From: Patescibacteria group bacterium
GTDB lineage: Bacteria > Patescibacteriota > Microgenomatia > 2-02-FULL-39-11
Length of the DNA stretch: 64,000 bases
Assembly (NCBI GenBank): GCA_023379265.1
Contig: JAMCUI010000009.1
Coordinates: forward strand, 100,091-164,090
Reading direction: 5' to 3'
Under the pieces are notes generated by a model. It ran no database searches. It worked only from the letters and a program-made list of their open reading frames with translations, and was not told the DNA's origin. This document shows, piece after piece, positions 4,563-54,663 of this stretch; the first letter of the stretch is position 1, and every line of letters starts with the position of its first letter. Position numbers and translations under genes: made by a program.

Positions 4563-4841
4563 TTATTTTTTATAAAGATTAATAACTTGGGACAATTTTT
4601 CCTTTTGTTCTTTGGAAAGCCCTTCTCCACCATTTAATATTTGATGGACGATACTGCCTTCCAAAGTTTTGCTTCTTAAAGCATCGAATGATTTGGCAAT
4701 TGAGGTAACTAACATAGCAATTCCCATGCAATCGGCATCATCTGCTATATATCTTTTAAGTGTTTCAATCTGACCTTGTATGCGGTTAAGGTGATCTAAA
4801 GTCCGTTCCCGTCTGTTTTTAATTTTCGTATTAATTTTCAT
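4563..4841 (-). CDS. Metal/stress-sensing transcriptional repressor of the CsoR/RcnR/FrmR family (DUF156)
   Basis: 92 aa. LNRIQGQIETLKRYI...DCMGIAMLVTSIAKSFDALRSKTLEGSIVHQIL matches the RIEGQ...C...A..AL...H core of the family. Cys and His are at the expected positions, but Asn replaces the second Cys of CsoR. First gene of the ABC operon. Confidence 0.6.
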   Translation of the reverse strand: MKINTKIKNRRERTLDHLNRIQGQIETLKRYIADDADCMGIAMLVTSIAKSFDALRSKTLEGSIVHQILNGGEGLSKEQKEKLSQVINLYKK

Positions 4842-4844
4842 ATG

Positions 4845-4868
4845 TATATACCCCCACCCCTATATAAT
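4845..4868 (-). promoter_or_regulatory. Candidate operator/promoter element: TATATA-CCCCCACCCC-TATATAAT immediately upstream of the CsoR-family gene
   Basis: A 10-nt C-tract (G-tract on the coding strand) flanked by TATA-rich hexamers, 4-27 nt upstream of the start codon. Resembles GC-core/AT-flank CsoR operators. See the finding for this site. Confidence 0.3.
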
Positions 4869-4939
4869 ATACTCTTTTTTCTGAGTAAATGCTGAAACGA
4901 GTAAAGGAGGCAAATTCGCTTGCTTAAATTTGTTACAAT

Positions 4940-5278
4940 ATGGATAGTCAAACTATGAAACTTGCCATTATTCTTTCAACTAACAACGCAGAAAAAAACT
5001 GGAACGCATTTAGACTAGGCAACTTAGCTTTAAAAAGTGGTGATAACGTAAGCGTATTCCTTATCGGTGAGGGTGTTGAATACTTACAATTTACTAGTGA
5101 CAAATTTGACATCCAAAAACAGGTTGATGCATTTCTTAAATCAAGAAATGGAGAAATTTTAGCCTGTGAGACGTGTATGGATCTTCGGCATCAAGAAGGT
5201 AATAAAACCTGTCCGGTAAGCGGAATGAAAGAACTGTATAATTTGATAAAAGAGAGTGATAAGGTAGTTACTTTTTAA
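4940..5278 (+). CDS. DsrE/DsrF-like family small protein (sulfur-relay/peroxiredoxin-like fold)
   Basis: 112 aa. KLAIILSTNNAEKNWNAFRLGNLALKSGDNVSVFLIGEGV... with conserved Cys residues (ACETCMD, KTCP). Confidence 0.45.
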   Translation: MDSQTMKLAIILSTNNAEKNWNAFRLGNLALKSGDNVSVFLIGEGVEYLQFTSDKFDIQKQVDAFLKSRNGEILACETCMDLRHQEGNKTCPVSGMKELYNLIKESDKVVTF

Positions 5279-5282
5279 TCGT

Positions 5283-5978
5283 ATGAAAAAGCTACTGTTT
5301 GGCCTAAGCACATTATTGATCTTAGGGATTGTCTTTTCTTCTTCTGTATCAGCCCAAGGGATGATGAACTGGGGTAATACTTCCAGCGCAACTCCCTCCT
5401 CAGTGACTTCAACTGCTCAGGATGAAAGTAAAGGAAGACAACTATGGGATCAACTGCAAGCAAAACAAGTGACTTGTGAGAGTTTAAAAGATGACGATTT
5501 TGAAGTATTAGGTGAATACTTTATGGGTCAGTCTGTCGGTAATACGGAAAGACATGCCGTTATGAACCAAATGATGCAGAATATGATGGGTCAAAACGGA
5601 GAAGAGCAAATGCACATATCGCTTGGTAAAAGATCAAGTAGTTGTGATACCAATGTTTCGTTTCCTTCAGGATACGGATTACCTATGATGTGGTGGATGA
5701 TGGGAGGAGGTGGAAATCCTATGATGGGATATGGCGGCTGGAATAACTGGGGTAATATGATGGGTTGGGGAGGTTTTGGCTTCGGCTGGATATTTATGAT
5801 TATCTTTTGGACTCTTATTATTCTAGGTGTCGTTGCTTTAGTCCGATACTTAGGAGGTACCAGACAAAACAATACAATAGATAGAGCTAATCCGCCTTTG
5901 GACATTCTCAAAGAGCGTTATGCCAAAGGAGAAATCAACAAGAAAGAGTTTGAGGAAATGAAAAAGGACTTGAGATAG
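5283..5978 (+). CDS. Secreted/membrane protein with Met/Gly/Trp-rich low-complexity region, one TM helix and C-terminal SHOCT domain
   Basis: Signal peptide MKKLLFGLSTLLILGIVFSSSVSAQG. Met-rich stretches MNQMMQNMMGQNGEEQMH and MMWWMMGGGGNPMMGYGGWNNWGNMMGWGG. TM helix IFMIIFWTLIILGVVALV. C-terminus DILKERYAKGEINKKEFEEMKKDL is SHOCT-like. Confidence 0.55.
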   Translation: MKKLLFGLSTLLILGIVFSSSVSAQGMMNWGNTSSATPSSVTSTAQDESKGRQLWDQLQAKQVTCESLKDDDFEVLGEYFMGQSVGNTERHAVMNQMMQNMMGQNGEEQMHISLGKRSSSCDTNVSFPSGYGLPMMWWMMGGGGNPMMGYGGWNNWGNMMGWGGFGFGWIFMIIFWTLIILGVVALVRYLGGTRQNNTIDRANPPLDILKERYAKGEINKKEFEEMKKDLR

Positions 5979-5995
5979 GGTAAACTTGAAAAGAA

Positions 5996-6568
5996 ATGAA
6001 AACCAGAGAAAGCGGTATGCCAGATGAAAAGATGTGGGATACTTTTTTTGATCCGGATACCATTTTGGATAGTTTAGGCATAAAAAATCTCACAGGAAAT
6101 ATAGCTGATTTTGGTTGCGGATACGGAACATTTACTATTCCGGCAGCAAAAAGAACAAAAGGTAAGGTATATGCACTTGATATTGAAAAAGAGATGGTAC
6201 AAATAACACAGGAGAAGGCAAAGCAATCAGGTTTAAATAATGTAGTAGCAATTCAAAAGGATTTTATGACCGGTGGTACAGGACTCGCCGACTCATCCTG
6301 TGACATAGTTTTGCTTTTTAATATTCTTCATGCAGAAAATCCGTTAAATATATTGGTTGAATCAAAAAGAATTCTCACTTCAGGAGGAGCAGTAGCTATA
6401 ATTCACTGGATTCCTGATCCTACAACTCCCCGCGGACCACCGATGAGCATTCGTCCGCATCCTGAAGAAATTCAAAATTGGTTGAAAGAAGCAGGTTATA
6501 AATTAAAAAACACGATAATTCCACTTCCTCCATATCATTATGGTTTATTGGGGAAAAAGACTGATTAA
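5996..6568 (+). CDS. Class I SAM-dependent methyltransferase
   Basis: Motif I DFGCGYGTFTIPAA, acidic motif II VYALDIEKEM, post-I region. Confidence 0.75.
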   Translation: MKTRESGMPDEKMWDTFFDPDTILDSLGIKNLTGNIADFGCGYGTFTIPAAKRTKGKVYALDIEKEMVQITQEKAKQSGLNNVVAIQKDFMTGGTGLADSSCDIVLLFNILHAENPLNILVESKRILTSGGAVAIIHWIPDPTTPRGPPMSIRPHPEEIQNWLKEAGYKLKNTIIPLPPYHYGLLGKKTD

Positions 6569-6634
6569 GTGATAGAATAAGTAACTTTTTAATAGTCGTA
6601 TTGAAATAAACTAGGTTATCTCATTTAAATTTCC

Positions 6635-12814: not shown

Positions 12815-14758
12815 TCAGACCTGTCCTCTAAACTGGCTATTATAGAGATCGGCGTAGAAGCCATTTTTTGCTAAAAGTCCTTTATGGGTGCCTTTCTCGA
12901 TGATTGTTCCGTGGTTCATGACAAGGATAAGGTCCGCGTCGCGGATAGTAGAGAGTCTGTGGGCAATTACGAAATTCGTTCGGCCCTTCATGAGCTTGTT
13001 CATGGCATTTTGGATAAGAAGCTCGGTTCTGGTATCCACACTGCTGGTTGCCTCATCCAAAATAAGAATTTCCGGATCAGCCAGGAACGCGCGTGCTATG
13101 GTTAAAAGCTGCTTCTGGCCTTGAGAGATATTTGTTGCATCCTCGTTGAGAACCATGTTGTAGCCTTCCGGTAGCGTCCTTATAAAGTGGTCGGCATATG
13201 CCGCTTGTGCTGCTCGTACAATTTCTTCTTCTATCGCGTTTTCGCGGCCATATGCAATATTATCGCGGAGTGTTCCATGGAAAAGCCATGTATCCTGCAA
13301 TACCATGCCGAACATGCGGCGCAGGTCGCCGCGTTTGAGCTTTGTAATGTCAATGCCGTCAATTAGTATATTGCCGCTGTTTACTTCATAGAAGCGCATC
13401 AGTAGATTGACAAGAGTTGTCTTACCGGCCCCGGTTGGACCGACAATTGCTATCATTTGGCCGGGTTTCACAACAAAATTCATATTCTCCATAAGAATCT
13501 TATCTTTACTATATCCAAAACGGACATGCCGGAATTCGACTGCACCTTTGGGAGTATTAATTGTCAAAGGTTTTACCGTTTCAGGCACTTGTTCCTCTTC
13601 GTCTAAAAGTTCAAATATGCGTTCTGCTGAGGCTATGGCTGACTGGATCACGTTTGCAATATTTGCAAGCATGGTGATTGGTTGGCTAAACTGGGCTGAA
13701 TATTGGATAAATGCCTGAACGTCACCGATGGAAATTGCGCCTTGTGTTGTCATAATTCCTCCCACTACTGCCACTAATACATAACCTATATTCCCGACGA
13801 ACCGCATGAGCGGCATGAGAATGCCTGAGACATATTGTGCCTTCCAACCGGCATCATAAAGTTTGTCGTTGAGGTAGTCAAACCGTTCGATAGCTTTTCT
13901 CTCGTGTCCAAATGCTTTGACGATCTTGTGTCCCGTATACATCTCTTCGATGTGGCCATTGAGATCACCAAGGCTGCTTTGCTGCTTTCTGAAATAATCT
14001 TGTGAACGTTTAGCAATACCCGTAACAATAAACAGACTCATTGGAATGGTTGCCAACACAATCAGGGTCAACACCACGCTTATTGAAAGCATCATTACCA
14101 GTACGCCTACAAGAGTGACTGCGGAGGTAATGAGTTGCGTTACGCTCTGTTGAAGGGTGGAGCTGATATTATCCATGTCATTGACCGCGCGACTGAGGAT
14201 CTCGCCGTGTGTGCGTCCGTCGAAATATTTCAGGGGTAACCGTGAAAGTTTTTCGTCTACTTCTTTTCGGAGTTTATAGATAGTTCTTTGTGCTACACCG
14301 GCCATCAGGTACTGTTGTATAAATATGAAAATCGCGCTGACAATATACAGCCCAAGCAAAATTACCATAACTCTGCCTATATAACCGAATTCGATACCGG
14401 GTACCGGGGCAATTTGTATAGAGAGTGTTGGGTTTTGCAGTAATTCTTTTCTTATAATTTGATTTCTTGCTTGTACGATGAAACTTGCAATCAGGTTGTC
14501 AAAAAGCTTGGTTGTTGCCAGACCCAGAATCTTCGGGCCAACGATATTAAACACCGTTCCCAAGACTGCTGCCGCTACCACGATTGACAAAAGGAATTTT
14601 TCCGGAACAAAATACTGAAGCAGCCTCCTGAGTGTACCTCGGAAGTCCTTGGCTTTCTCGACGGGTCTGCCCATGGCTCCCCAGCCACCCCGACCCATTG
14701 GGCCATGGCCCATACCGCTTTGACTAGTTTGGTTTTTAGCGTTATTACTTGGACTCAT
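12815..14758 (-). CDS. ABC exporter, fused TMD-NBD (type I exporter half-transporter)
   Basis: 647 aa. 6-TM domain, Walker A GPTGAGKTT, signature ISQGQKQLLTIARAF, Walker B ILILDEATS. Confidence 0.9.
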   Translation of the reverse strand: MSPSNNAKNQTSQSGMGHGPMGRGGWGAMGRPVEKAKDFRGTLRRLLQYFVPEKFLLSIVVAAAVLGTVFNIVGPKILGLATTKLFDNLIASFIVQARNQIIRKELLQNPTLSIQIAPVPGIEFGYIGRVMVILLGLYIVSAIFIFIQQYLMAGVAQRTIYKLRKEVDEKLSRLPLKYFDGRTHGEILSRAVNDMDNISSTLQQSVTQLITSAVTLVGVLVMMLSISVVLTLIVLATIPMSLFIVTGIAKRSQDYFRKQQSSLGDLNGHIEEMYTGHKIVKAFGHERKAIERFDYLNDKLYDAGWKAQYVSGILMPLMRFVGNIGYVLVAVVGGIMTTQGAISIGDVQAFIQYSAQFSQPITMLANIANVIQSAIASAERIFELLDEEEQVPETVKPLTINTPKGAVEFRHVRFGYSKDKILMENMNFVVKPGQMIAIVGPTGAGKTTLVNLLMRFYEVNSGNILIDGIDITKLKRGDLRRMFGMVLQDTWLFHGTLRDNIAYGRENAIEEEIVRAAQAAYADHFIRTLPEGYNMVLNEDATNISQGQKQLLTIARAFLADPEILILDEATSSVDTRTELLIQNAMNKLMKGRTNFVIAHRLSTIRDADLILVMNHGTIIEKGTHKGLLAKNGFYADLYNSQFRGQV

Positions 14759-16509
14759 ACAGTTTCTTTCTCAATTTCCGTCGCTGACAGTTGTGAAGTC
14801 ACAATTGCGCGATAGACATCGCAGGTTTTCATAAGTTTCGTGTGAGTACCGATACCTACAACTCGTCCCTCATCAAGGACAATAATCTGATTGGCGTCAA
14901 TCACTGTGCTGACCCGCTGGGCGACAATGATTACTGTAGCATTGCGAGTCTCTCCTTTGAGAGCGGCACGCAATTTAGCGTCAGTCTTAAAGTCAAGCGC
15001 CGAGAAAGTATCGTCAAATACGTAAATTTCCGGTTTTCTCACCAGGGCTCTGGCAATTGAGATACGTTGCATCTGCCCACCAGAAACATTTGTCCCACCT
15101 TGGGCAATCATCGAATTAAAACCTTCAGGCATTTTGGTAATAAATTCACTGGCCTGTGCCACATCAGCCGCGTGTTTTATTTCTGCTTCTGTTGCATTTT
15201 CGTGGCCAAAACGAAGATTCTCGTTCACAGTTCCTGCGAACAATACAGCCTTTTGAGGAACAAAACCGATTTTTTCACGTAAATAGTCCTGTGACATTTG
15301 TCTAATCTCAACTCCATCAACGAGTATCCGGCCGCTGTTTACATCATAAAAACGCGGAATAAGGTTAACTAGGGTAGACTTGCCAGCACCGGTGCCGCCT
15401 ATGATGGCGGTTACATTACCGGGAGAGGCACGAAATGAGATGTTATAAAGTGCCGGTTTTTCCGCTCCATGATAACTAAAAGTGACATTTTGAAATTCGA
15501 CAAAGCCGCGAAGTTTATCGGCTTTCTTCACTTCTTTAAGGTCGTTGATTTCAGGTTCCATGGCCAAAACTTCGTTGATTCTGGTGGCAGAGGCTTCCGC
15601 ACGCGGGATCATAATAAACATAAGCGCTACCATCAGGAGTGAAAAGAGAATCTGGAAAGCATATTGCAGGAAAGCAAACATCGCACCGATTTCCAAATGC
15701 CCGCCAGTGACGCGCAGACTGCCAAACCATATTATGGCCACACTGGAAAGATTTATAAGAAGCATCATTACTGGCATCATTGTCGCCAACATCTGGTTGA
15801 CTTTAATTGCGATACTTGTTACGTCGCGGTTGGCTTCATCAAAACGCTGTTCTTCATGCTTGATCCGATTAAAAGCCCTCACCACTCGGACTCCAGTTAA
15901 GTTTTCATCCAAAATAAGGTTTAGTTTATCCAGTTTTACCTGCATGATAGAGAAAAGAGGTACTGCCTTGACAAGGAGTATCAGAATAACAATAACGAGG
16001 ATTGGCATGACCGCAACCAGAATCCATGAGAGCCCTACATCCTGGTTTAGGGCAAGAATAATGCCAACAATCAGCGTGATTGGAGCAGTGATTAACATAT
16101 TCAGGATCATAACCATCACCTGTTGGATCTGTACCGTATCATTGGAGGTACGGGTGATAAGAGATGCAGTGCTGACTATGTCAAACTCATGCAGCGAAAA
16201 CTGTTGAATCCTGTAGAAAATCTCAGCGCGGATAACTTTCACCATACCCGTCGCAACCTGGGATGAAAAATATATGCCTACCACAGCGCATAGTGTGCCT
16301 GCAATTGCCACTATGGCCATAAGTCCTCCGGTTCTCCAAATGTAGTCGGTGTCGAATGTTGAAATACCTTTATTTACGATATCTGCCATCAAGTTTGGCA
16401 AATACAGGTTTGCCACAGACTGTCCGACAGCAAGTGCAAGGATAAGCGCTAGGAGAATCCGGTAGGGTTTTAAGAAACGTAATAGTTTAATCATTGCAAA
16501 TTGACACAA
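14755..16509 (-). CDS. ABC exporter, fused TMD-NBD (partner half-transporter)
   Basis: 584 aa. Walker A GGTGAGKST, signature VSGGQMQRISIARAL, Walker B YVFDDTFSALD. 4-nt overlap with the partner gene. Confidence 0.9.
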   Translation of the reverse strand: MCQFAMIKLLRFLKPYRILLALILALAVGQSVANLYLPNLMADIVNKGISTFDTDYIWRTGGLMAIVAIAGTLCAVVGIYFSSQVATGMVKVIRAEIFYRIQQFSLHEFDIVSTASLITRTSNDTVQIQQVMVMILNMLITAPITLIVGIILALNQDVGLSWILVAVMPILVIVILILLVKAVPLFSIMQVKLDKLNLILDENLTGVRVVRAFNRIKHEEQRFDEANRDVTSIAIKVNQMLATMMPVMMLLINLSSVAIIWFGSLRVTGGHLEIGAMFAFLQYAFQILFSLLMVALMFIMIPRAEASATRINEVLAMEPEINDLKEVKKADKLRGFVEFQNVTFSYHGAEKPALYNISFRASPGNVTAIIGGTGAGKSTLVNLIPRFYDVNSGRILVDGVEIRQMSQDYLREKIGFVPQKAVLFAGTVNENLRFGHENATEAEIKHAADVAQASEFITKMPEGFNSMIAQGGTNVSGGQMQRISIARALVRKPEIYVFDDTFSALDFKTDAKLRAALKGETRNATVIIVAQRVSTVIDANQIIVLDEGRVVGIGTHTKLMKTCDVYRAIVTSQLSATEIEKETV

Positions 16510-23451: not shown

Positions 23452-23688
23452 GAATAGGGAAACCCTGCTGGAAAAAATCTGGTCGTATGTCTCCTGAAGA
23501 TTAAAATTAGTTTATGTAATTGACTTTACCCGGATTTACTGTTAAGGTAGCTTACGATGTCTTTTAAAAAACATGGTACCAGGAAGAAACCGCATTCATT
23601 TCTTATAAGAAAAAAAATCCATGGACGGGTGAAAGCTCTTCTTCGGAAAAGAAGAGTCAGATAGCCTTACATATATCCTATAGTCATA

Positions 23689-23718
23689 TTGACTTCATCT
23701 TCGGGTTAGTGTATAATA
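23689..23718 (+). promoter_or_regulatory. Sigma-70-type promoter (TTGACT-18-TATAAT) driving the DEAD-box helicase leader
   Basis: TTGACT at 23689-23694 and TATAAT at 23713-23718. The conserved leader element begins 12 nt downstream. Confidence 0.5.
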
Positions 23719-23729
23719 TATTCATCGGT

Positions 23730-23852
23730 AAACAGATTTAATCAATAAATCTGTTTAGATCAGATTTTGTTTTAAGCAGTTCTATAGATAAAGATACCCT
23801 AACTTTTTTTCCGTATCTTTTCCCCTTCTTAACTCACTTCTCATTTAGACAG
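23730..23852 (+). promoter_or_regulatory. Conserved ~125-nt leader element, copy A (two conserved hairpins plus conserved 3' block), at the start of a ~340-nt 5' leader
   Basis: Hairpin 1 AAACAGATTT-aatcaat-AAATCTGTTT (23730-23756). Hairpin 2 AAAGATAC-n15-GTATCTTT (23790-23820). Shared blocks CTGTTTAGATCAGAtTTTGTTTTAAGCA and TCATTTAGACAG. Second copy at 42498-42627. Confidence 0.55.
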
Positions 23853-24067
23853 TTTTCTTGGTTTAACCCGCTTTAGCGAAATTCCCCGACCCGCTTCGTC
23901 CAACCTTAAGCGAGGCAAGTCGTAAGATCGAGGGATGCAGAGACCTTTTTTCGCTTCGGCGAGGTTTACACTCTGATGAAGCGCGTTATTAAGATTACCA
24001 GACCGTTAGGTTGTGGGAGCTTCAACTGTTCCGGTGAATTACTGTTTCAGATTAATTAGAAGGAAAA

Positions 24068-25369
24068 ATGTATAAACATAATTTCCAAAAGAGATACGGC
24101 AGGTTAGGTTTTGGCGGATTCCACCGCAGACACGGTTTTAACCGACGCGGAAGTAGCGCCGGTCGAAGGATAAATGCCGTAAGCCGCAGGTCAGATATTG
24201 GCCCATCGGTGTATATAAGAAAGCGAAATAATACAGGTCTAAGGGAAAATGCCGTAAGCCGCAGAACTATTGTTGATCCCTCAAGATACATCAGTAGTGA
24301 AAATACCCAGCCTATCCAGGAAAAATATACTTCACAGCACAGTTTTGATGATTTTCCTATAGACAACAGGTTAATACAAAATATATATGCCCGCGGTTAT
24401 GAAAAGCCAACACCAATTCAGGATCAGGCGATTTTTCCCATACTGGAAGGAAGAGATGTAGTTGGTATTGCCAATACTGGCACCGGCAAAACAGCAGCAT
24501 TTCTCATCCCGGTCATAAACAAGATTTTGAATGAAAGCGCAAATAAGGTACTTATCGTCATCCCTACAAGGGAGCTGGCAGTACAGATAGATGATGAGTT
24601 CCGGGCGATATCAAAAGGTTTAGCTATCACATCACTTCTTTGTATCGGGGGAGTCAGCATCAATCGTCAGATTTTCAGCCTACAGCAAAATCCCAGTATT
24701 ATAATAGGTACTCCAGGCAGGCTAAAGGATCTTTCCCAGAGGAGATTTCTGGACCTTTCTAATTTCAAGACTATTATACTTGATGAGGTCGACAGGATGG
24801 TGGATATAGGCTTTATACAGGATATAAAGTATATTGTTTCCCTCCTTTCACGACCGCGGCAGTCACTTTTCTTTTCCGCGACAATCTCTCCCGACGTTGG
24901 TAGTATTATACAGTCGTTTCTTACAAATCCTGTCACGATAAAAGTAAAAGTGCAAGAAACTTTGCCCCAGATAGAACAGGATGTGATAAGGGTAAGGGAT
25001 AAGAATGAAAAGCTTCAGAAATTGGACGAAATGCTTCGTCAGGAGGAGTTCAAAAAAGTGCTTATATTCGGTAGGACCAAGTGGGGAGTGGAAAGACTGT
25101 CTAGGTCGCTGCAACAGAAAGGCTTCAATGCAGCATCCATTCACGGGAATAAGTCACTAAATCAGCGTCTGCGGGTACTAACGCAGTTTAAGCTGAACCA
25201 GCTGCATATTCTGGTGGCAACAGATGTAGCGGCAAGAGGACTTGACATAGAGAATGTGTCACATGTGATAAATTTTGACGAGCCTTCTTCTTATACAGAT
25301 TATGTGCATAGGATTGGCAGAACCGGTAGGGCGCAGAAATCTGGGAAGGCGCTGACGTTTGTGGGTTAG
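24068..25369 (+). CDS. DEAD-box ATP-dependent RNA helicase with Arg-rich N-terminal extension
   Basis: Q-motif ...YEKPTPIQ. Motif I ANTGTGKT, Ia PTRELA, II DEVD, III SAT, VI HRIGRTGRAQ. The ~100-aa N-terminal R-rich extension contains a 25-aa tandem repeat. Confidence 0.9.
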   Translation: MYKHNFQKRYGRLGFGGFHRRHGFNRRGSSAGRRINAVSRRSDIGPSVYIRKRNNTGLRENAVSRRTIVDPSRYISSENTQPIQEKYTSQHSFDDFPIDNRLIQNIYARGYEKPTPIQDQAIFPILEGRDVVGIANTGTGKTAAFLIPVINKILNESANKVLIVIPTRELAVQIDDEFRAISKGLAITSLLCIGGVSINRQIFSLQQNPSIIIGTPGRLKDLSQRRFLDLSNFKTIILDEVDRMVDIGFIQDIKYIVSLLSRPRQSLFFSATISPDVGSIIQSFLTNPVTIKVKVQETLPQIEQDVIRVRDKNEKLQKLDEMLRQEEFKKVLIFGRTKWGVERLSRSLQQKGFNAASIHGNKSLNQRLRVLTQFKLNQLHILVATDVAARGLDIENVSHVINFDEPSSYTDYVHRIGRTGRAQKSGKALTFVG

Positions 25370-25449: not shown

Positions 25450-26445
25450 TTGACCAGATTTTTCCTTATGAATACTGCTTTTCATTTTCAAGACGAGTCA
25501 TTATGGGAAGAATTTGCTGCACTGAAAAAATCCGCAGACATAAAAAGGAACGATGCTCTTAAAAAAAGAATTACCTATCAGCCCCGCGCTACGGATTTGG
25601 AGTTTTTACTTGGTGCATTTATGGAGATGTATGAGTTTCATTTGCACGGTATAATCCATAAACTTATTGCAAAGGGATATGCAGTTGATGCTTCATCCGG
25701 CTTCGGCGGAAAAAATTCTGAATTCCAGATGTTAACAGGAGAGTTTTCTATAGATTTTGTCACCAAAAATAAGCTGGAAAAGATGGGTGTGAAATTCCGG
25801 GAGTTTAACGGCATGAAATCGCTTGTCTTTTGGCCTCAGAAAGCGACGATTGATGATATAAAGGGAGACTGGATGAAGGTCGTAAATGCGCTTCCAGATA
25901 AAGGGAAATTGGTTTTCCCGTCTTCAAGCGCTGAGGCCGTTTCTTTCCGGAGAAAATATGTTCCCAAGGATTCAAATCTGCAGAAAGAAAGACTTTTTGA
26001 GAAATTAAAGTTCAGTATTCAGCAAAGAGTATATTCCGAGACTAAAAAGAGGCAAAAGGAAAGCCCGCGTCCCGATAAAATAGAAATAATGCTTGGCTTT
26101 TTTATAGAGGAGATAGAACCTCAGGTAAGGCAGGCGGTTATTAGCATGAATAAAAAGGGTTATTCTACTGACAGATCAGGATTTTCTGATAATCCGTGTG
26201 AACAAATAGTGGAAGGTGATTTTCGAGTTGGTGAAGAAACAGTAAAAATGTTGGAGGATGTAGGAGTACAATTGGAAACAAATCCCAGCGGTTACACCAG
26301 AATGAAATTCTTACCGTTGGAGGCGGATATACCCAAAATCAAGAAGCAATGGGATAAAATAGTTTCTCTATTACCGAATAAAAATCAGACTGCATCATTC
26401 TCCATGACCAGAAAAGCCAGGGAATTCAGGTTGTCATATCAGTGA
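25450..26445 (+). CDS. Hypothetical cytoplasmic protein composed of two homologous ~140-aa repeats
   Basis: Internal duplication visible by eye: KGYAVDASSGFGG...MKSLVFWPQKATIDDIKGDWMKVVNALPDK versus KGYSTDRSGFSDN...TRMKFLPLEADIPKIKKQWDKIVSLLPNK. Confidence 0.5.
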   Translation: MTRFFLMNTAFHFQDESLWEEFAALKKSADIKRNDALKKRITYQPRATDLEFLLGAFMEMYEFHLHGIIHKLIAKGYAVDASSGFGGKNSEFQMLTGEFSIDFVTKNKLEKMGVKFREFNGMKSLVFWPQKATIDDIKGDWMKVVNALPDKGKLVFPSSSAEAVSFRRKYVPKDSNLQKERLFEKLKFSIQQRVYSETKKRQKESPRPDKIEIMLGFFIEEIEPQVRQAVISMNKKGYSTDRSGFSDNPCEQIVEGDFRVGEETVKMLEDVGVQLETNPSGYTRMKFLPLEADIPKIKKQWDKIVSLLPNKNQTASFSMTRKAREFRLSYQ

Positions 26446-31808: not shown

Positions 31809-32227
31809 AATCCGTTTGTACTATCTTGAGATTTATCGATGTTATTAATACTGTTTAGATCGGTATCTGTTTGATTGATGGCTTGTTGCATAGTAGTGTC
31901 TGTGTTATTTAGCGTCTGATCAACATTTGAGGAAGTTATTGGGGTAACAGCTGGGGTAGTAATAGCAGTCGGATAAACTGCCACTGGTAAACTTGTTGGT
32001 TGCGGATTCACGGTTGTCTGCGTTTTTTTACCACTCATCATCAAAGTGTAACTTCCGGCAACAAAAAGAATAAGGACAATAAGAGCTAAAATGATATAAA
32101 TATGCTTTTGATTCCTAGGTTTTGCAGGATTTTGTGCAGTTGCAACCGGCGTTTCTTGAGGAGGATTTGATGGAGCATCTTGTGGGATGTTTGGTGTGGG
32201 TGAAGGGTTGGCAGATTGTGTTTCCAT
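31805..32227 (-). CDS. Pro/Thr-rich single-pass membrane protein (cytoplasmic Pro-rich N-terminus, extracellular Thr/Asn-rich C-terminus)
   Basis: 140 aa. TM IYIILALIVLILFVAGSYTLMM. 4-nt overlap with the downstream coiled-coil gene. Confidence 0.4.
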   Translation of the reverse strand: METQSANPSPTPNIPQDAPSNPPQETPVATAQNPAKPRNQKHIYIILALIVLILFVAGSYTLMMSGKKTQTTVNPQPTSLPVAVYPTAITTPAVTPITSSNVDQTLNNTDTTMQQAINQTDTDLNSINNIDKSQDSTNGL

Positions 32228-42460: not shown

Positions 42461-42489
42461 TTGTTTTATGTTGCAGAATATGATATAAT
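42461..42489 (+). promoter_or_regulatory. Sigma-70 promoter with extended -10 (TTGTTT-17-TGaTATAAT) for the RRM gene leader
   Basis: TATAAT at 42484-42489, preceded by TG. Leader element starts 9 nt downstream. Confidence 0.45.
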
Positions 42490-42497
42490 GCGTCTAT

Positions 42498-42627
42498 AAA
42501 CAGATTTAAGCCAATAGATCTGTTTAGATCAGAATTTGTTTTAAGCAAGCCAAAGATAAAGATACTCAATTCATATTTCTTTTTTTCGTATCTTTTCCTC
42601 TTCTTATTTCATCTCTCATTTAAACAG
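42498..42627 (+). promoter_or_regulatory. Conserved leader element, copy B (same two hairpins and blocks as 23730-23852)
   Basis: Hairpin 1 AAACAGAT-n12-ATCTGTTT (42498-42525). Hairpin 2 AAAGATAC-n22-GTATCTTT (42558-42595). Blocks CTGTTTAGATCAGAaTTTGTTTTAAGCA and TCATTTAAACAG. Confidence 0.55.
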
Positions 42628-42844
42628 CTATATTTGCTTAAGTCGCGGAAGTAATATCATAATCAGTATTCGGCTGAAAGAATAAATAGGCGAATAGATA
42701 CCTGTAGAGTCACTTTTTTACAGACTTACAATTGGTTTCAGTTTTAGTACCGTTTTTCTTTTGGTTGTTTGATATAATTTTGCTTCTGAAATTATTAATT
42801 ATTTCTTATCCTTTTTAAGGATAAGAGTAAAAGGAGTTATCAAA

Positions 42845-43174
42845 ATGGCAAAGAACCTTTTTGTAGGAAGTCTTCCCTTCTCAGTTACTGAAGACGCGGT
42901 CGGACAACTGTTTGCAAAATACGGACAGGTACAGTCAGTCAATGTAATAAAGGACAAATATACCGGTAAAAGCCGTGGATTTGGCTTTGTGGAAATGAGT
43001 ACGGAGGAGGAAGCACAAAAAGCCATACAAGGCCTCAATAACTATAACCTTGAGGGCAGAAATATAATCGTCAAGGAAGCCTTACCAAAGCCGACTTATA
43101 CGGATGGCAGAGGAAGTGATAGTAGAGGTAGACGAAGTTTCGGCTTTGGCGGCAGACCTCAGAGAAGGTATTAA
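42845..43174 (+). CDS. RRM-type RNA-binding protein with Arg/Gly-rich tail
   Basis: RNP-2 LFVGSL. RNP-1 RGFGFVEM. C-terminal GRGSDSRGRRSFGFGGRPQRR. Confidence 0.85.
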   Translation: MAKNLFVGSLPFSVTEDAVGQLFAKYGQVQSVNVIKDKYTGKSRGFGFVEMSTEEEAQKAIQGLNNYNLEGRNIIVKEALPKPTYTDGRGSDSRGRRSFGFGGRPQRRY

Positions 43175-54312: not shown

Positions 54313-54588
54313 ATGGATCAAACAAATAATTCTTCAGGTGCTTCGGGACCATCAGGCCCAAAAAAGGTAAACAATGTTACGGTTGTAGTAGACAGAAATC
54401 TTTGTATTGGTGCGGCTTCTTGTGTGGCTGTGGCGCCAAAGACTTTTGCCTTGGATAATGAGGCTAAAGCGATAATATTGGATACCGCAACCGAAGATAG
54501 TTTAGATACGATAATGGACGCGGCCAAGTCGTGTCCGGTAGCTGCTATAATAATTCATGACGATACAGGTAAACAGTTGTTCCCGTAA
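54313..54588 (+). CDS. Small ferredoxin (single-cluster 3Fe-4S/4Fe-4S type)
   Basis: ...VVVDRNLCIGAASCVAVAP...AKSCPVAAI... Confidence 0.65.
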   Translation: MDQTNNSSGASGPSGPKKVNNVTVVVDRNLCIGAASCVAVAPKTFALDNEAKAIILDTATEDSLDTIMDAAKSCPVAAIIIHDDTGKQLFP

Positions 54589-54663
54589 GTAGATGTGACT
54601 CACAGAAGTGTTGTAGCTGCGATTATTATTCACGATGAATCCGGCAAACAGTTGTTTCCTTAA
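54589..54663 (+). repeat. Tandem partial duplicate of the ferredoxin 3' end (last ~16 codons + stop), in frame with the preceding stop codon
   Basis: GTAGCTGCGATTATTATTCACGATGAATCCGGCAAACAGTTGTTTCCTTAA versus the original GTAGCTGCTATAATAATTCATGACGATACAGGTAAACAGTTGTTCCCGTAA. Confidence 0.6.

Follow-up and report, generated by a model that had tools for sequence, protein, structure and literature searches.

Two genes in a 64-kb stretch of DNA from a Patescibacteria group bacterium (contig JAMCUI010000009.1 of assembly GCA_023379265.1; the whole stretch is referred to below as the window) are preceded by copies of the same element, namely a DEAD-box RNA helicase gene (deaD) and a gene encoding an RRM-type RNA-binding protein (rrm). 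Judged by sequence comparison, the element is an RNA family without an earlier match, restricted to the Candidatus Gottesmanbacteria clade of the Patescibacteria, or Candidate Phyla Radiation (CPR). It appears to form the first 135-155 nucleotides (nt) of the rrm mRNA, of the deaD mRNA or of a single rrm-deaD operon mRNA, and it is almost certainly a structured cis-regulatory leader RNA, most likely serving to co-regulate both RNA chaperones. Its main fold is a long irregular hairpin, the rod, whose base competes for one strand with a short 5'-terminal hairpin, P1. Taken broadly, and by analogy with the cspA leader of Escherichia coli, the element may act as a two-state switch responding to cold and/or to chaperone capacity, a reading given a probability of about 0.6, while far less confidence is attached to any specific direction of that switch.

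The two copies are revealed by pairwise alignment, in which dense identity begins just past each -10 box, spans about 135 nt and extends little beyond. The window contains exactly two occurrences of a 29-nt block, TCTGTTTAGATCAGAWTTTGTTTTAAGCA, one at 23750-23778 and one at 42519-42547, each on the plus strand, and 0 of 100 dinucleotide-preserving shuffles gave a match to it. A covariance model built from relatives (R1) also detects exactly two copies in the 64 kb, with reverse-strand scores of 42-49 bits. A preliminary description of this DNA had placed the element at both of these sites, and alignment, exact 29-mer and covariance model all agree with it. Nevertheless, the length of about 125 nt proposed there falls short of the functional element, and the copies are less alike than the term near-identical implied, being about 85% identical in ungapped blocks and 73% identical with indels counted. 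The median identity between copies of different genomes is 65-67%, and the two window copies are therefore old paralogues under purifying selection and not the outcome of a recent duplication. The 3' block, also described as conserved, is kept in both copies but differs by a single base (TCATTTAGACAG versus TCATTTAAACAG). A partial third match at 31846-31872 lies within an open reading frame (ORF), was undetected by the covariance model and was discarded as a chance match. The sequence of copy 2 is identical in four near-identical strain contigs (L001-L004); since the strains are so close, the invariance of their rrm leader is uninformative on selection.

Pfam matches support the earlier assignment of both downstream genes, with DEAD (PF00270) and Helicase_C (PF00271) for the helicase and RRM_1 (PF00076) for the RRM protein. 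Several assemblies, among them GCA_023487465.1 (Patescibacteria), encode an identical RRM protein, whose best-named homologues belong to Candidatus Gottesmanbacteria, and some sources name its homologues 'cold-inducible RNA-binding protein'. Sequence searches place the element in about 60 independent loci of Candidatus Gottesmanbacteria genomes and metagenomes, all of one clade, where it is always in sense orientation, always just past a sigma-70-type promoter and, with one exception, always ahead of rrm, deaD or an rrm-deaD operon. Three RRM homologues (81-86% identity) that were fetched by protein alone all have the element in the upstream intergenic region (3/3), with different neighbouring genes. 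A DNA-pattern scan of one genome per species returned 38 stretches, among them 19 full elements in 15 Gottesmanbacteria/Microgenomates-type metagenome-assembled genomes (MAGs), each located upstream of rrm or deaD on the sense strand, except one. Four MAGs contain two pattern matches each, and four genomes carry exactly one rrm copy and one deaD copy. The other 19 stretches (from Flavobacterium, Bacteroidales, Nitrospirota and others) contain the short palindrome only, score at most 26 bits with the model and are regarded as chance hairpins, and two pattern matches in viral contigs were both negative with the covariance model.

The limits of this distribution were traced with the helicase, for which 80 metagenomic loci obtained by protein similarity were searched with model R1. 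Where helicase identity is at least 56% and upstream sequence is available, the element lies directly upstream in 46 of 50 loci, while at identities of 55% or less the same first-generation model found it in 0 of 30 loci, also with search filters off, and the element is therefore restricted to one clade. On the rrm side, the model-based alignment holds 12 distinct copies, 2 of them before rrm-deaD operons, to which loci L135 and L136 are added. A single element stands ahead of the rrm-deaD operon in L057 (313-2034) and L104 (20-1674). In L135 (1300-3213) the order is element, rrm, a second divergent element and deaD, and this second copy has neither promoter nor 5' arm, which suggests that it is a processing site. 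The one exception to the gene association is a copy in L037 (5755-5923, 102 bits) that precedes a 209-aa ORF without Pfam match, possibly a third regulon member. In the same locus (5755-6584) this ORF is followed by a weak YGGT-like membrane protein and then by a helicase gene with a divergent element.

The preliminary description had suggested a small regulon of RNA-chaperone genes, and about 60 loci upstream of rrm, deaD or their operon fit that suggestion. It had also proposed a covariance search of relatives, naming further matches upstream of csp-, deaD- or rbp-like genes as support; such matches were found for deaD and rrm, but the only csp-like gene available, a cold-shock-domain gene of L058 (65 aa, 4818-5015, minus strand), has no element upstream. 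The regulon therefore consists of rrm and deaD, not csp. The L058 gene also indicates that the clade is not devoid of cold-shock proteins (CSPs). Seven contigs deposited as 'uncultured Gammaproteobacteria' or 'Bathyarchaeia' MAGs (L021, L027, L030, L042, L044, L045, L049) carry full elements and Gottesmanbacteria-like rrm or deaD genes, and these deposits are probably binning or labelling errors.

The rod consists of a base of about 25 bp, internal loops and a tip formed by AAAGAUAC/GUAUCUUU with a U-rich loop. Its base arises from pairing of the 3' block ATTTAGRCAG, and of the next ~17 nt, with the loop and 3' arm of hairpin 1, and single-sequence folds pair CUGUUUAGAU with AUUUAGACAG around the second hairpin. 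RNAalifold applied to 22 MAFFT-aligned sequences gave the longer rod, including 8 pairs with changes on both sides, and RNAalifold applied to a model-based alignment of 57 sequences (A5) recovered the rod base and tip independently. The structure tested on A5 comprises rod and tip (35 pairs). In this alignment 93% of cells are paired, as opposed to 31-48% when partners are slid by 1-3 columns, both-side (compensatory) changes are seen in 13 pairs and 71 cells, and the observed value was reached by 0 of 500 shuffles on any of five measures. Two rod positions are U-G in 39 of 56 sequences, and forward-strand model scores (70-146 bits) are about twice those of the reverse strand (27-63 bits). Because G-U pairs are common and the forward scores are about double, the structure belongs to the RNA of this strand.

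For nearly all of the 55 distinct sequences the rod is the predicted minimum-free-energy (MFE) fold (median -35.7 kcal/mol at 37 °C). Its basal helix comprises 25 model pairs, with pairing in 91.6% of cells, and the G-to-A difference of copy 2 relative to copy 1, located in the rod 3' strand, turns a U-G pair into U-A. The apical hairpin is paired in 96.8% of cells, with its closing C-G replaced by U-A or G-C in 4 sequences, and it is deleted in L052 and L136, both of which retain the rod base. Insertions of at least 50 nt inside the rod or the hairpin loop occur in L092 (1063-1276), L075 (1144-1283) and L089 (2280-2419), and the middle of the element therefore tolerates them. The proposal that a structure under selection is present, and not drifting duplicate DNA, is thus upheld by the rod covariation and the 0 of 500 shuffles. 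The original picture of two independent hairpins survives in part: hairpin 2 is real, with loops of 15 and 22 nt as first described, but as the dispensable tip of the rod, while the main fold is the rod itself and hairpin 1 competes with its base. Likewise, the RNAfold and RNAalifold runs recommended in the preliminary description recovered hairpin 2, but the RNAalifold main fold incorporates the loop and 3' arm of hairpin 1 into the rod. A small-molecule riboswitch was considered unlikely, given an unbranched rod, the location of the most conserved bases within helices, a dispensable tip and RNA-chaperone genes downstream.

The position of the promoter relative to the element was compared in an alignment of the 62-nt upstream flanks of every distinct copy. 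Of 56 distinct copies, 39 have a recognisable TTGAC(A) -35 hexamer, which precedes a ~17-nt spacer and a TAnnnT -10 box, and the distance from the end of the -10 hexamer to the C of CAGATTT ((A)ACAGATTT) is mostly 7-8 nt and commonly 5-9 nt. Because the position of the -10 box relative to the element is conserved, the transcript probably starts at or just before (A)ACAGAUUU, the first bases of the element. This fits the earlier placement of the element at or next to the transcription start, since a conserved TTGAC-17-TAnnnT promoter precedes most of the 56 distinct copies. In the window, the TTGACT and TATAAT hexamers ahead of the helicase gene are as first reported, but their spacer is 17 nt and not 18 nt. 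For the window's rrm promoter the consensus scanner gave no call and a good -35 hexamer is absent. A second extended -10-like TGATATAAT is present at 42770-42778, about 67 nt before the rrm ATG and within species-specific extra spacer, and it might serve as a proximal promoter whose transcripts would lack the leader element.

Upstream of the -35 hexamer lies a further conserved feature, the CCTATAGT box, which occurs only once in the 64-kb window. Among relatives, 34 of 43 helicase copies and 3 of 12 rrm copies have a CCTATAGT-like box 3-5 nt before the -35; L022, L026, L032, L038, L052 and L057 are among those with the box at the same position. The box itself is probably real, and either a dedicated transcription factor might bind there or it might be a special upstream promoter element. 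This raises the question of whether the genes form a purely transcriptional regulon, with a factor acting at the CCTATAGT box, or with an inverted repeat AACAGATTT-N-AAATCTGTT at +1 to +30 as repressor operator, and with incidental RNA structure. The uniqueness of the box in the window, its frequency in helicase promoters and the near-invariant sequence of the hairpin-1 arms, as is often seen in operators, would be in keeping with such control. However, the box is infrequent in rrm promoters and missing from that of the window, the rod covariation is strand-specific, and its G-U pairs would be A-C mismatches on the other strand. Moreover, variation in hairpin 1 favours RNA wobble pairs that would break a DNA palindrome, and the spacing of the repeat changes while its arms are kept (L066, L085). 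A DNA operator is expected to be equally symmetrical on both strands, but frequent G-U pairs and strand-specific scores were found instead, and a transcriptional regulon is considered very unlikely as the explanation of the element.

Even less credible, bordering on negligible, is the idea of an independent small RNA gene or a mobile repeat (a miniature inverted-repeat transposable element, MITE) that merely happens to lie upstream of these genes. The element does have its own promoter, it is separated from each start codon in the window by about 200 nt, with the second TGATATAAT inside one of these spacers, and the rod superficially resembles the terminal inverted repeats of a MITE. Against this, in most relatives the helicase ATG follows within 19-39 nt, too short a distance to accommodate a terminator or another promoter. 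Between 23400 and 24200 the prediction gave no terminator-like site, and the U run after the rod is inconsistent among copies. In addition, scattered, gene-independent copies were not encountered: two are present in the window and one or two in each genome, at the same two gene families while synteny changes, and copies within a genome are as diverged as copies of different genomes (73% versus a median of 65-67%). The early preference for a leader over a MITE therefore stands, given one or two copies per genome, at rrm and deaD. The rod was also considered as an intrinsic terminator with the 5' hairpin as antiterminator, and this was rejected because the rod base is A+U-rich and a U run follows the rod in only some copies.

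The second fold involves the 5' end of the RNA. The first ~10 nt of the transcript, (A)ACAGAUUU, can pair alternatively with AAAUCUGU(U), forming the 5'-terminal hairpin P1 (hairpin 1). The isolated 5' regions of copy 1 (23728-23760) and copy 2 (42496-42529) fold with -11.0 kcal/mol (z = -5.4) and -11.4 kcal/mol (z = -8.2), respectively. The loop of this hairpin has 7 nt in copy 1, as first described, and 8 nt in copy 2, where 12 nt had been counted. P1 and the rod base share the strand AAAUCUGUUU, and since P1 uses AAAUCUGUU(U), the centre of the rod base, the two folds are mutually exclusive.

Across relatives, 91.5% of P1 cells are paired, and substitutions in the 5' arm are nearly all transitions (A to G, C to U) that retain G-U or U-G wobble on this strand. 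The sequence ACAGA, which the rod leaves single-stranded, counts among the element's best-conserved positions. An A-U pair of P1 is replaced by G-C in L104 and in the divergent second copy of L037 (7489-7661), the latter having two such compensatory changes, and in both cases the third partner, on the rod 3' strand, stays compatible with the change. L093 and L100 have lost the canonical arm, and another 5'-terminal hairpin, GCUGGU/ACCAGC, again captures part of the rod 5' strand. In L066 a loop insertion has displaced the ACAGAUUU arm, which is intact, and the hairpin still folds; in L085 an ACAGATTT is found about 60 nt upstream of its usual place. The intercistronic copy of L135, the only copy that is not 5'-terminal, lacks the 5' arm. 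Taken as comparative evidence, these cases argue that P1 is under selection despite weak formal covariation.

The distance between element and start codon differs between genes and genomes. The helicase ATG of most relatives is 19-39 nt downstream of ...CAG, or 4-24 nt past the rod end, and the linker is A+U-rich, without a recognisable Shine-Dalgarno sequence (L022, L026, L032, L038, L043, L046 and others). The consensus of the helicase start in the clade is M-F/Y-x-x-S-F. The rrm ATG of relatives is found 34-80 nt after ...CAG, with a strong AAGGAG. In the window both spacers measure about 200 nt, and the element is kept in spite of this distance, therefore direct occlusion of the ribosome site is not a universal output. 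The leader of about 340 nt with a GC-enriched spacer, as first described for the helicase gene, exists here but is species-specific: it contains a 159-nt insertion that the nearest relative, L044, lacks and of which the fetched loci contain no second copy. The spacer region that contains the insertion (23866-24067) folds no better than shuffles (z = -0.28). With the insertion missing from L044 and this z score, the GC-rich spacer was ruled out as part of the element. Pairing of the helicase coding start with the central strand was also rejected, as the resemblance, seen in few sequences, follows codon choice and is not conserved. On the rrm side, a hairpin CTTATCC-loop-GGATAAG stands immediately before AAGGAG (42805-42825) and is also found in L007, L011, L049 and L052, with an invariant stem and variable loops; it could be a second, rrm-specific translational control element.

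Table 1. Positions, in the window, of the two leader copies, their alternative folds and the flanking promoters and genes.
Feature	Position	Strand	Evidence and remarks
Leader element, copy 1	23726-23880	+	Predicted 5' end of helicase mRNA; R1 131 bits, E = 6e-26; reverse strand 42 bits
Leader element, copy 2	42494-42655	+	Predicted 5' end of rrm mRNA; R1 133 bits, E = 2e-26
P1 (hairpin 1), copy 1	23730-23756	+	AAACAGATTT 23730-39, 7-nt loop, AAATCTGTTT 23747-56
P1 (hairpin 1), copy 2	42498-42525	+	AAACAGATTT 42498-507, 8-nt loop, AGATCTGTTT 42516-25; one U-G pair
Rod base 5' strand, copy 1	23740-23764	+	Overlaps P1 loop and 3' arm; MFE fold, covariation
Rod base 3' strand, copy 1	23839-23863	+	TCTCATTTAGACAG then TTTTCTTGGTT; MFE fold, covariation
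Rod base 5' strand, copy 2	42504-42533	+	MFE fold
Rod base 3' strand, copy 2	42614-42643	+	TCTCATTTAAACAG then CTATATTTGCTTAAGT; MFE fold
Apical hairpin (hairpin 2), copy 1	23790-23820	+	Arms AAAGATAC 23790-97 and GTATCTTT 23813-20; 15-nt U-rich loop
Apical hairpin (hairpin 2), copy 2	42558-42595	+	Arms AAAGATAC 42558-65 and GTATCTTT 42588-95; 22-nt U-rich loop
CCTATAGT box	23677-23684	+	4 nt upstream of helicase -35; candidate transcription-factor or UP-type site
Sigma-70-type helicase promoter	23689-23717	+	TTGACT (23689-23694), 17-nt spacer, TATAAT (23712-23717); 11/12 consensus positions
rrm extended -10 TGATATAAT	42481-42489	+	Ends 8 nt before AAACAG; read from sequence
Lineage-specific 159-nt insertion	23868-24026	+	GC 0.51, AAC at both ends; outside conserved element
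Shine-Dalgarno of helicase gene, GAAGGA	24059-24064	+	Sequence
DEAD-box RNA helicase gene	24068-25369	+	433 aa; Pfam DEAD (PF00270), ResIII, Helicase_C (PF00271)
Shine-Dalgarno of rrm gene, AAGGAG	42831-42836	+	Sequence
RRM-type RNA-binding protein gene	42845-43174	+	109 aa, RGG-rich tail; Pfam RRM_1 (PF00076)

Some other features of the window were recorded. A protein of about 325-331 aa without Pfam match is encoded directly 3' of the helicase gene both in the window (25450-26445) and in L057 (2067-3044), and is thus a conserved neighbour, as yet uncharacterised. A repeat search returned two 51-nt copies located 75 nt apart at 54538-54663 (78% identical), and a 91-nt pair at 13345-13435 and 15303-15393, 1958 nt apart and 71% identical, is probably paralogous coding sequence.

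The analysis shows the conservation of the element, its association with the two genes, the position of the promoter, the rod, and an alternative 5' hairpin that exists and excludes the rod base. The two folds can be joined in a model of how the leader may work, in which the switching itself, its input signals, its output and any assignment of the "on" state are inferred. P1 would form first during transcription, and the rod would displace it once the 3' strand is made. How the mRNA population is split between the two folds would depend on temperature and on how active the encoded helicase and RRM protein are, and decay, either 5'-end-dependent or of the RNase III type, would in turn be controlled by this split. 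At helicase starts that lack a Shine-Dalgarno sequence and lie 4-24 nt beyond the rod end, the split would control ribosome loading as well. The outcome would be a coordinated, probably cold-responsive and self-limiting expression of both RNA chaperones. A cold response of the leader is plausible by analogy with known cold-shock leaders.

Several observations weigh against a switch. Considered alone, P1 shows one double change in A5, a result matched by 181 of 500 shuffles, and something else could account for its conservation. Because the hairpin-1 sequence was a required part of the genome-scan pattern, the copies found in this way are biased toward its conservation, while the protein-anchored sets are unbiased. 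Predicted stabilities favour the rod over the hairpin state by a median of about 14 kcal/mol, both at 37 and at 10 °C; at such a cost P1 would matter only co-transcriptionally, when kinetically trapped, or with a bound factor. In addition, the P1 loop and its 3' flank form a ready toehold for strand displacement, and P1 could be very short-lived. The distance from rod to start varies, from 4-24 nt for the helicase and 19-65 nt for rrm to about 200 nt for both window genes. Finally, the conserved CCTATAGT promoter box means that co-regulation could be largely transcriptional.

The main alternative to a switch is a static rod only, that is, a fixed double-stranded determinant of processing or stability (an RNase III site or a 5' stabiliser), in which the 5' hairpin is transient or coincidental. 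The rod is the predicted ground state everywhere, by the margin given above, and it has the strong covariation that the 5' hairpin lacks. Its 25 model pairs also agree, by prediction, with what characterizes an RNase III site, namely at least about 20 bp of nearly continuous double-stranded RNA, and the intercistronic copy of L135, which has the rod without the 5' arm, fits a processing site comparable to that of the processed rimO-crhR operon (10.1101/2021.03.26.437152). On the other hand, a static rod does not account for the unpaired 5' ACAGA being among the most conserved positions, nor for a 5' hairpin that is kept via wobble and compensatory changes, reinvented in a shifted position in L093 and L100 and retained in L066. 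Moreover, a purely static helix should drift more than is seen in the near-invariant AUCUGUUUA and UUUAGRCAG strands. With these points on both sides, a static rod is judged rather unlikely.

Another explanation, which partly overlaps with the switch, is that the element is a protein-operator RNA, containing a putative binding site for the RRM protein and/or the helicase (at the U-rich apical loop or the invariant helices) and mediating autogenous repression in the manner of ribosomal-protein leaders, for which alternative folds would not be required. Paired regions and apical loop (CCYWA followed by a U run) are conserved beyond structural need, both regulated genes encode RNA-binding proteins, and feedback precedents exist for RRM-1 proteins and for CrhR (PMC13370968; 10.1101/2021.03.26.437152). 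However, L052 and L136 have lost the apical hairpin together with its U-rich loop while keeping the rest of the element, and a constraint from three-way pairing accounts just as well for the invariant central strand. A protein operator is thus a possibility to be kept in mind, somewhat ahead of the static rod but short of being the favoured explanation.

A more specific version of the two-state switch, put forward as a speculation, is that the leader serves as an "RNA-folding homeostat" that senses how much RNA-remodelling capacity the cell has. The 5' hairpin of 9-12 bp could be opened by a non-processive DEAD-box helicase, which would not be the case for a rod of 25 bp or more. The helicase and an annealing-active RRM protein would speed the passage of the nascent RNA from the hairpin form, supposed to be stable and translatable, to the rod form, supposed to be processed or poorly translated. 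Each mRNA would in this way report whether chaperone activity suffices, and when cold or a load of misfolded RNA titrates the proteins, both genes would be induced automatically. If true, one RNA module, copied onto or shared by both genes, would provide a reduced CPR genome with a self-contained circuit that acts post-transcriptionally.

Structured leaders that co-regulate RNA-chaperone genes are a known kind of element, and it is the family itself that is new. Rfam searches of the window at the gathering threshold, and of both leaders at E up to 10, returned no matching family, including RF01697 and RF01766, in agreement with the earlier remark that no described element with such a sequence was known. 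A literature search on CPR, Microgenomates and Gottesmanbacteria, incomplete in its coverage, found no prior description. From the Candidate Phyla Radiation, a group of uncultivated bacteria with small genomes and few recognisable regulators, hardly any lineage-specific regulatory RNAs are known. In this case the comparative evidence is unusually clean, with about 60 loci, a strict two-gene association and strong covariation, and the element is ready for inclusion in RNA-family databases, where it would improve the annotation of Gottesmanbacteria. The mutually exclusive folds further provide a concrete hypothesis, that temperature or chaperones control the choice of conformer, which can be tested in vitro without growing the organism.

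In architecture, the closest analogue is E. coli cspA's 5' untranslated region (5'UTR; RF01766), which has a 5' cold-box hairpin at 37 °C and long-range pairing with extended stems at 10 °C, with changes in half-life and translation (PMC9411577). Both leaders measure about 150-160 nt and belong to the mRNA of an RNA chaperone, both combine a conserved extreme-5' sequence with a short hairpin that is opposed to long-range stems (here by prediction and comparative analysis), and in both cases the leader motif is common to several genes of one stress regulon. The cspA gene is also under feedback by its own product, as is proposed for the Gottesmanbacteria element. Nevertheless, the two have no sequence or covariance-model similarity (E up to 10), cspA belongs to a gammaproteobacterium and the element to a CPR bacterium, and the genes downstream encode cold-shock-domain proteins in one case and RRM and DEAD-box proteins in the other, with the cold-shock-domain gene of L058 lacking the element.

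Other known systems resemble the element in the genes that they regulate. The Chlorobi-RRM motif (RF01697) is a candidate cis-regulatory structured RNA upstream of RRM-protein genes (PMC2864571) and is similarly confined to a single bacterial lineage, but it belongs to another phylum, its model does not match the element, and the element differs in also preceding DEAD-box helicase genes and in having a rod with a competing 5' hairpin. The cyanobacterial cold-induced DEAD-box helicase CrhR binds a structure in its own mRNA, and rearrangement of this structure is proposed to control processing and translation (PMC3485376; 10.1101/2021.03.26.437152). As in the present case, a DEAD-box helicase mRNA carries a regulatory structure; however, that of crhR is located at the rimO-crhR junction and not in a 5'-terminal leader, is not common to an rbp gene and is unrelated in sequence.

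In Bacteroides, the RRM-1 proteins RbpA, RbpB and RbpC are cold-shock proteins subject to feedback through 5'UTRs of 122-155 nt, their auto- and cross-regulation is partly post-transcriptional, and the BT1884-1887 operon combines an RRM-1 protein with a CSP and a DEAD-box helicase (PMC13370968). The length of the 5'UTRs and the genetic link between RRM protein and DEAD-box helicase are shared with the Gottesmanbacteria system, while PMC13370968 describes no shared structured motif, no homology to the element is seen, and the Gottesmanbacteria leader is present on both genes even if they are unlinked. The union of an RRM protein and a DEAD-box helicase in one regulon parallels the Bacteroides RRM-1 cold-shock finding, and this parallel suggests that the RRM/DEAD-box pairing may be a general alternative to CspA-based cold adaptation.

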